Assembly: GCF_988242995.1 (NCBI RefSeq)
Contig: NZ_OZ547043.1
DNA: 64,000 nt
Reading direction: 5' to 3' (one strand)
The notes beneath the pieces were generated by a model. It saw only the letters and a list, made by a program, of their open reading frames with translations. It was not told the origin of the DNA and did no database searches. Shown piece by piece: positions 53,700-53,738 of the stretch; the first letter of the stretch is position 1; the number at the start of each line of letters is the position of its first letter. A program made the position numbers and the translations under genes.

Positions 53700-53738
53700 C
53701 AATGAATTAAAATTCAATTTTAATGGATGATTATTCAT
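53700..53738. promoter_or_regulatory. Tandem ARG boxes (ArgR operator) overlapping the argI promoter
   Basis: TGAATTAAAATTCA (perfect ARG box core) followed 3 bp after the box by TGGATGATTATTCA, 25-60 bp upstream of the argI start. Confidence 0.85.

Follow-up and report, generated by a model that had tools for sequence, protein, structure and literature searches.

The pair of ARG boxes lying directly upstream of the ornithine carbamoyltransferase (OTCase) gene argI, in the 64-kb stretch of DNA analysed here (the window), is with a probability of about 95% the argI operator, a canonical ArgR site that is already known. A swap of two nucleotides at the junction of one box and the spacer, which sets the window apart from all other known copies, was absent from an earlier description of this DNA made from its letters alone (the sequence-only reading).

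On the + strand, positions 53701-53718 read AATGAATTAAAATTCAAT, without a mismatch to the ARG-box consensus WNTGAATWWWWATTCANW, and a consensus search of the 64 kb returned this as the sole perfect match in the window; positions 53722-53739 read AATGGATGATTATTCATT and differ from WNTGAATWWWWATTCANW at two bases. Written on the strand of the gene, the promoter-distal box 1 (53722-53739) is AATGAATAATCATCCATT and occupies the region between the -35 and -10 elements of the promoter, the promoter-proximal box 2 (53701-53718) is ATTGAATTTTAATTCATT and covers the likely transcription start as predicted, and the 3-bp spacer between them (53719-53721) is AAA here, or TTT on the + strand. The box centres (53709.5 and 53730.5) are 21 bp apart and on one helix face, as in other ArgR operators, and the ATG of argI (53675, minus strand) follows 25 nt downstream of the tandem's end. 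The sequence-only reading had described two 18-bp boxes spaced 3 bp apart, and both the sequence and the consensus search bear this out; the cores that it quoted, TGAATTAAAATTCA and TGGATGATTATTCA, are exact, and its range of 53700-53738 found the right site with coordinates that are 1 bp off, the true range being 53701-53739. It was also right to place the boxes directly upstream of argI, as the OTCase gene whose ATG lies 25 nt away stands in the K-12 argI neighbourhood. Loose single boxes (three mismatches or fewer) occur in the 64-kb window at chance level, with 14 observed as compared to 9.06 expected, so the significance of the site is carried by the perfect box and the tandem arrangement. 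A full-text literature search with the operator sequences, on either strand, matched no paper.

The gene under control belongs to arginine biosynthesis, as is usual for this operator family. Its coding sequence (52671-53675, minus strand; 334 amino acids) matches the ornithine carbamoyltransferase models NCBIfam PRK12562 at 754.5 bits, against a cut-off of 559, and TIGR00658 at 466 bits. In most strains the RefSeq pipeline calls the gene argF, but its position identifies it as K-12 argI, and the gene order bdcA-bdcR-tabA-yjgL-argI-rraB-yjgM-yjgN-valS is that of K-12. The argI region was found in 5,425 of 5,426 complete E. coli genomes, and the 161-bp intergenic region has matches in as many, at 96-98.8% identity. 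With the same flanking genes and a near-identical intergenic sequence, the control region is by all appearances the orthologue of that of K-12 argI; in the gene itself, codon 2 is the synonymous TCT where K-12 has TCC. The argR gene, which in K-12 is some 1.1 Mb from argI, lies outside the 64-kb window, and since the DNA is of the Escherichia coli type we assume that argR is present in the source genome.

Between the operator and the start codon, a Shine-Dalgarno AGGAGG is found at 53681-53686 on the minus strand (gene strand CACAGGAGGGATCTATG), the GAGG core of which is conserved in an alignment of 80 species. Upstream of it, at 53689-53698 on the minus strand, the 5' UTR carries an inverted repeat, GGC-GTTA-GCC. 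A 4-bp version of the repeat (TGGC-N4-GCCA) is paired in 95.2% of cells across 81 sequences, with five double (compensatory) changes in two of the four pairs, and some genera carry compensatory variants such as TGAC...GTCA and TGGT...ACCA (loci L015-L094, at about 1177-1188). In the window, as in Escherichia generally, only 3 bp can pair, and the formation of a small hairpin is weakly suggested.

The neighbourhood also yielded observations of a separate kind. The YjgL-like open reading frame at 50946-52613 encodes 555 amino acids as compared to 604 in K-12, with no NCBIfam match and only a weak Pfam match, to SopA. It is the most divergent gene of the neighbourhood, with 56 differences (18 at first, 11 at second and 27 at third codon positions), many of them non-synonymous. 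Its exact allele is rare, occurring in 47 collection blocks against 59,317 for ArgI, and the same 555-aa allele was seen on 24 contigs. Divergence of the window from the nearest complete genome is mosaic, running at 6-36 differences per kb between 42000 and 59000 and falling to almost none between 59000 and 64000 (holC-pepA-lptFG), which suggests a recombination boundary near the valS/holC junction.

To score the operator, the control regions of nine K-12 arginine-regulon genes or operons were taken and the best tandem was located in each. A symmetrised weight matrix was then built from the 16 boxes of eight K-12 operators, leaving out argI, argF and hisJ, the last because its best tandem is ambiguous (8 mismatches with either a 2- or a 3-bp spacer); for artJ the solution with a 3-bp spacer was taken, following PMC6640053. 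Because the training operators were those sites that best fit the consensus within known control regions, the matrix resembles the consensus, although argI and argF were never part of it. The sites recovered for carAB, argA, argECBH, argD, argG and argR (the last with a 2-bp spacer) agree with the classical operators.

The sequence-only reading had proposed an ArgR motif scan as a check on its claim, and the tandem of the window scored 37.05 bits (21.22 for box 2 and 15.83 for box 1), far beyond threshold and the highest value in the 64 kb, with both boxes inside the predicted promoter. All of the training operators score lower, at 27.2-35.6 bits even with themselves included in the training set, and their individual boxes range from 9.0 to 21.2 bits; the spacers among these other ArgR operators are TAA, AAT, ATT, AAA, TAT and TG. 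The best tandem per simulated 64-kb sequence averaged 11.4 bits (sd 3.4, maximum 32.65, n=200), and 0 of the 200 reached 37.05. There is a vanishingly small chance that the palindromes are functionless products of AT-rich intergenic DNA, for although degenerate single boxes are no commoner than expected (14 versus 9.06) and single boxes of 12-17 bits do turn up in AT-rich coding DNA (e.g., at 52449 and 38481), the tandem stands well above the maximum of the 200 simulated windows and its position, spacing and sequence are kept in all 80 of the species representatives while the upstream flank varies freely, so that on score and conservation together we regard a chance origin as excluded. Operator score and published Kr are correlated at a Spearman coefficient of -0.68 (n=8, p=0.06), and the top score of this operator fits the reporter measurements of PMC3658269 (Table 1), where, of the arg promoters, that of argI binds ArgR with the lowest dissociation constant and shows the highest capacity.

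The same scan picked out a second ARG-like tandem at 48132-48170, TTTGAATTAAAAGTCAAA ATA CATGCATATTTATTTGTT, likewise with a 3-bp spacer, which at 27.5 bits is about level with the genuine argR operator. Situated between pyrL and yjgH, some 70-110 nt upstream of the main pyrBI promoter, it adjoins a PUR-box-like ACCGTTTGCGCT. PMC4299497 predicted sites for ArgR and PurR in the pyrL promoter and matched these with ChIP-chip data, so this tandem has already been reported.

Promoter scans place a predicted -35 element, TTGCAA, at 53739-53744 on the minus strand, its last base being the first base of box 1, and the best -10 candidate, TAAAAT, at 53717-53722 on the same strand, 16 bp away. On the gene strand the layout is TTGCAA-ATGAATAATCATCCAT-TAAAAT-TGAATTTTAATTCATT, with TAAAAT reaching from the end of box 1 across the spacer into box 2. 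By this prediction the boxes cover the promoter from the -35 element through the -10 element to the likely start site, as is characteristic of the operator family, and the overlap with the argI promoter that the sequence-only reading had claimed is upheld by the predicted elements at 53744-53739 and 53722-53717. The exact register of the -10 element is uncertain, wild-type options being TATAAA or TAAATT.

The classic ArgR hexamer operator arrangement, as that reading had called it, agrees with the canonical E. coli design, in which two 18-bp boxes with a 3-bp spacer lie over the -35 and -10 elements and a single arginine-loaded hexamer binds one face of the DNA (PMC6640053, PMC6245113, PMC4381063); according to the same sources, binding of ArgR and of RNA polymerase is mutually exclusive at carP2. 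The boxes of such sites are 3 bp, or rarely 2 bp, apart on one helix face (PMC6640053, PMC4381063). ArgR-dependent repression of the argI promoter itself has been published (PMC3658269); argI is not named in the text of the ChIP-exo paper. Going by what has been published for the K-12 allele, an ample supply of arginine would lead a single arginine-loaded ArgR hexamer to bind both boxes cooperatively and to span the DNA from the last base of the -35 element through the -10 element and the likely start, such that RNA polymerase would be excluded and argI would be off. When arginine falls, ArgR would leave and the strong argI promoter would fire. ArgR binding, arginine dependence and steric exclusion at this operator are thus carried over from K-12, and to the explanation as a whole we attach the same high confidence as to the identity of the site.

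The footprint of the operator across species helps to tell which bases serve which function. One genome per species was scanned, giving 80 loci from about 25 genera of Enterobacteriaceae. The highest-scoring tandem upstream of each OTCase gene reaches 30.5-39.9 bits, has its boxes 3 bp apart in all 80 and stops 25-28 nt short of the ATG. The TTGCA and the first A of box 1 are invariant in the 80 species representatives, the core of box 2, TGAATTTTAATTCA, is conserved in at least 79 of them, and the block CATATAAA at the junction of box 1, spacer and box 2 is conserved in 78-80. The spacer reads TAA at 79 of the 80 loci, and the sole exception among the other genomes examined is a single TAG. 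Box 1 is more variable than box 2, its variable positions being 2, 5, 9-11 and 13-14, and there is free variation among the 80 species in the 15 bases that precede TTGCA. The spacers of other ArgR operators differ, and therefore the invariance of ATA|TAA|A is not explained by ArgR; a -10 element explains it.

One might go further and propose that promoter elements only (-35, -10 and start region) have been conserved, with ArgR incidental. The invariant TTGCA and CATATAAA are indeed best explained by contacts with RNA polymerase, and the constancy of TAA, given spacers that vary in other ArgR operators, is not due to ArgR. Box 2, however, is a perfect ARG palindrome, with its core TGAATTTTAATTCA kept in at least 79 of the 80, and it sits downstream of the -10 element, where sigma-70 promoters need little sequence; moreover, box 1 has kept its TGAAT and ATTCA-like half-sites within the normally variable -35/-10 spacer, and the repression reported in PMC3658269 depends on ArgR. 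We consider a promoter-only footprint very improbable. An ArgR operator superimposed on a promoter is the preferred reading, and the value of the 80-species footprint is that it separates the needs of ArgR (the TGAAT/ATTCA half-sites) from those of the promoter (TTGCA and CATATAAA) where the two signals overlie one another.

Among the closest known operators is that of K-12 argI, a classical member of the ArgR regulon with two ARG boxes overlapping its promoter (Charlier et al. 1992, cited in PMC6640053). It shares with the window the gene, its neighbourhood, the 3-bp spacing, the -35 TTGCAA and the distance to the ATG, 37 of 39 operator bases are identical, and the ArgR matrix score is the same 37.05 bits; the difference is that K-12 has ...CCATA TAA ATTG as compared to ...CCATT AAA ATTG in the window, which changes the -10 options. 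The carAB P2 operator likewise has two 18-bp ARG boxes, a TAA spacer of 3 bp and an overlap with the promoter, where repression works because ArgR and RNA polymerase exclude each other from the DNA (PMC6245113). It differs in that its boxes overlap the -35 element, within a tandem-promoter region that also holds PurR, RutR, IHF and PepA sites, and in its lower score (35.6 bits, as a member of the training set).

The operator of K-12 argF, the paralogous OTCase gene in the CP4-6 region, has the same architecture at 36.75 bits and has TTGCA, CATATAAA and the core of box 2 in common with argI. Its box 1 is AATGAATAATTACACATA, its 5' UTR is 2 nt longer, and an annotated small ORF, argL, starts at an ATG in box 1, whereas the equivalent frame of argI stops after 15 codons. 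In K-12, argL (locus L003, 4276-4371) is a 31-codon open reading frame annotated as a "putative translational regulatory protein" that overlaps the start of argF. Its argI counterpart, at 53691-53738 of the window, reads MNNHPLKLNFNSLRR and then a stop; because this frame starts upstream of the predicted -10 element, its translation would need a transcript from further upstream. An argL-like upstream reading frame for argI was thus rejected as a candidate, the frame from the ATG of box 1 ending after 15 codons and beginning upstream of the predicted start. The K-12 argF operator and 5' UTR (AATGAATAATTACACATA TAA AGTGAATTTTAATTCAAT AAGTGGCGTTCGCCATGCGAGGATAAAATG; L003, about 4307-4375) are identical to the control region of the argI locus in Enterobacter (L071 and L079, E. 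hormaechei and E. vonholyi) and unlike that of Escherichia argI, which is consistent with the IS1-flanked argF of K-12 having come from an Enterobacter-like donor.

Another question is whether the operator is shared. The gene rraB (RNase E inhibitor B; 53837-54253, plus strand; NCBIfam PRK11191, 214 bits) lies upstream of the OTCase gene, in divergent orientation, in all 80 species representatives, across an intergenic region of about 160-240 nt, and a consensus match on the + strand, TTAAAA-16-GATTAT at 53707-53734, puts a candidate rraB promoter inside the operator. In a ciprofloxacin-evolved population of BW25113, a point mutation upstream of argI, in what the study calls "the ARG box" (G4468182A), was reported to accompany transcript levels more than 7-fold higher for argI and 6-fold higher for rraB, and the rraB -10 box was placed over position 4468182 (PMC11417348). 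This position maps to 53729 of the window, which is position 11 of box 1 and where the window carries the wild-type base. The boxes might on these grounds control the divergent rraB promoter as well, in a way that would complement the main explanation. Against this, the candidate promoter is weak (8 of 12 positions), with an implied leader of about 96 nt, the accessible literature yielded neither a start site for rraB nor evidence that the gene depends on ArgR, the rraB effect comes from an evolved population with other mutations, and ArgR is reported to be a poor roadblock with a position-dependent effect (PMC6640053). Joint control of rraB seems to us rather unlikely, and repression of argI is the function that we assign to the operator with confidence. 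The evolved mutation, published as disrupting the ARG box, is itself a C to T change at position 11 of box 1, towards the ARG consensus, by which the + strand gains GATAAT. As a change towards the consensus, its effects on argI and rraB may, in our own estimation, owe more to new or better -10 elements than to lost ArgR binding.

The feature that is private to the window lies a few bases away. At 53721-53722 the + strand has TA where all others in the alignments have AT, so that the gene strand reads CCAT[TA]AAATTG as compared to the CCAT[AT]AAATTG of K-12, O157:H7, a divergent E. coli lineage and all other sequences examined. The swap falls inside the near-invariant TATAAA at the junction of box 1 and spacer, the likely -10 element, and leaves the window with CATTAAAA in place of the CATATAAA block that all E. 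coli genomes examined have kept; as the match to the ARG boxes is unchanged, the missing block leaves membership of the ArgR-operator family intact. The swap was absent from 5,425 complete E. coli genomes, among which there is no exact match to the 161-bp intergenic region and the best matches are 2 bases off. It was also absent from 104 loci examined, including 10 assemblies that encode an identical ArgI protein, and from the 80 other species representatives, and an exact-match scan of a metagenome collection gave 0 copies of the swap allele against 112 of the wild type. A sister assembly, GCA_958328545.1, found through the exact YjgL-like protein, agrees with the window at every base of 6,668 nt except the two of the swap.

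The ArgR score is the same with or without the swap, because position 18 takes A or T and the spacer is unscored. The -10 options do change: the wild type offers TTGCAA-15-TATAAA (53723-53718) or TTGCAA-17-TAAATT (53721-53716), the window has TTGCAA-16-TAAAAT, and the best -10 element has moved by one base. Under the same promoter-scan rules the K-12 sequence gave no promoter call at the equivalent place. Since the box match is unaffected, repression should be retained in the window allele, and promoter strength or start-site choice may differ.

Two accounts of the swap have to be weighed. It might be a sequencing or assembly error, the true sequence being the universal CCATATAAATTG. In favour of an error, no other copy of the swap turned up among 5,425 E. 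coli genomes, 80 species and 112 stretches of metagenome, and nothing else separates the window from the sister assembly in 6,668 nt. The change is equivalent to a compensating pair, -A and +A, beside a run of A, an error type of some platforms, and it hits positions conserved in 79 and 80 of the 80 species, at which selection should act against real changes. Elsewhere, however, the divergence of the window is clean and natural, with third-codon changes making up 27 of 28 differences in argI and 59 of 62 in valS, and a length-preserving double change is unusual as a read error in polished assemblies. Furthermore, selected regulatory mutations are known in the same operator (PMC11417348), and the swap makes a well-formed -10 element, TAAAAT at 16-bp spacing, like a selected promoter mutation. 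An error is in our judgement a real possibility that falls somewhat short of an even bet. A broader suspicion, that the window as a whole is noisy or altered sequence, was rejected: over 22 kb it is 98.6% identical to the nearest complete genome, and the differences are concentrated, overwhelmingly so, at third codon positions.

Alternatively, the swap may be a real and very recent regulatory mutation. We propose this tentatively, at slightly under even odds: TATAAA would have become TTAAAA and the argI -10 element would have moved one base downstream to TAAAAT, with a change in promoter strength, in the start site or in how ArgR and RNA polymerase compete, so that the levels of OTCase and arginine would be reset. 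The ARG-box mutation that arose under ciprofloxacin selection would be a parallel case. The two lie in the same operator, 7-8 bp apart (53729 versus 53721-53722), and G4468182A shows that changes in the argI operator alter expression of argI and rraB and can be selected. They differ in kind, the evolved mutation being a single transition at position 11 of box 1, in the -35/-10 spacer, and the change in the window a double transversion in the -10/spacer element.

The operator itself only confirms the annotation, the argI operator being a founding example of the arginine regulon. The swap, located in the promoter-specific part of the site, is the sole point that deserves follow-up. If it is real, it would be a natural experiment on how far a -10 element can shift inside an operator without loss of repression, and it would add to the recent evidence that mutations in the argI operator are selectable.
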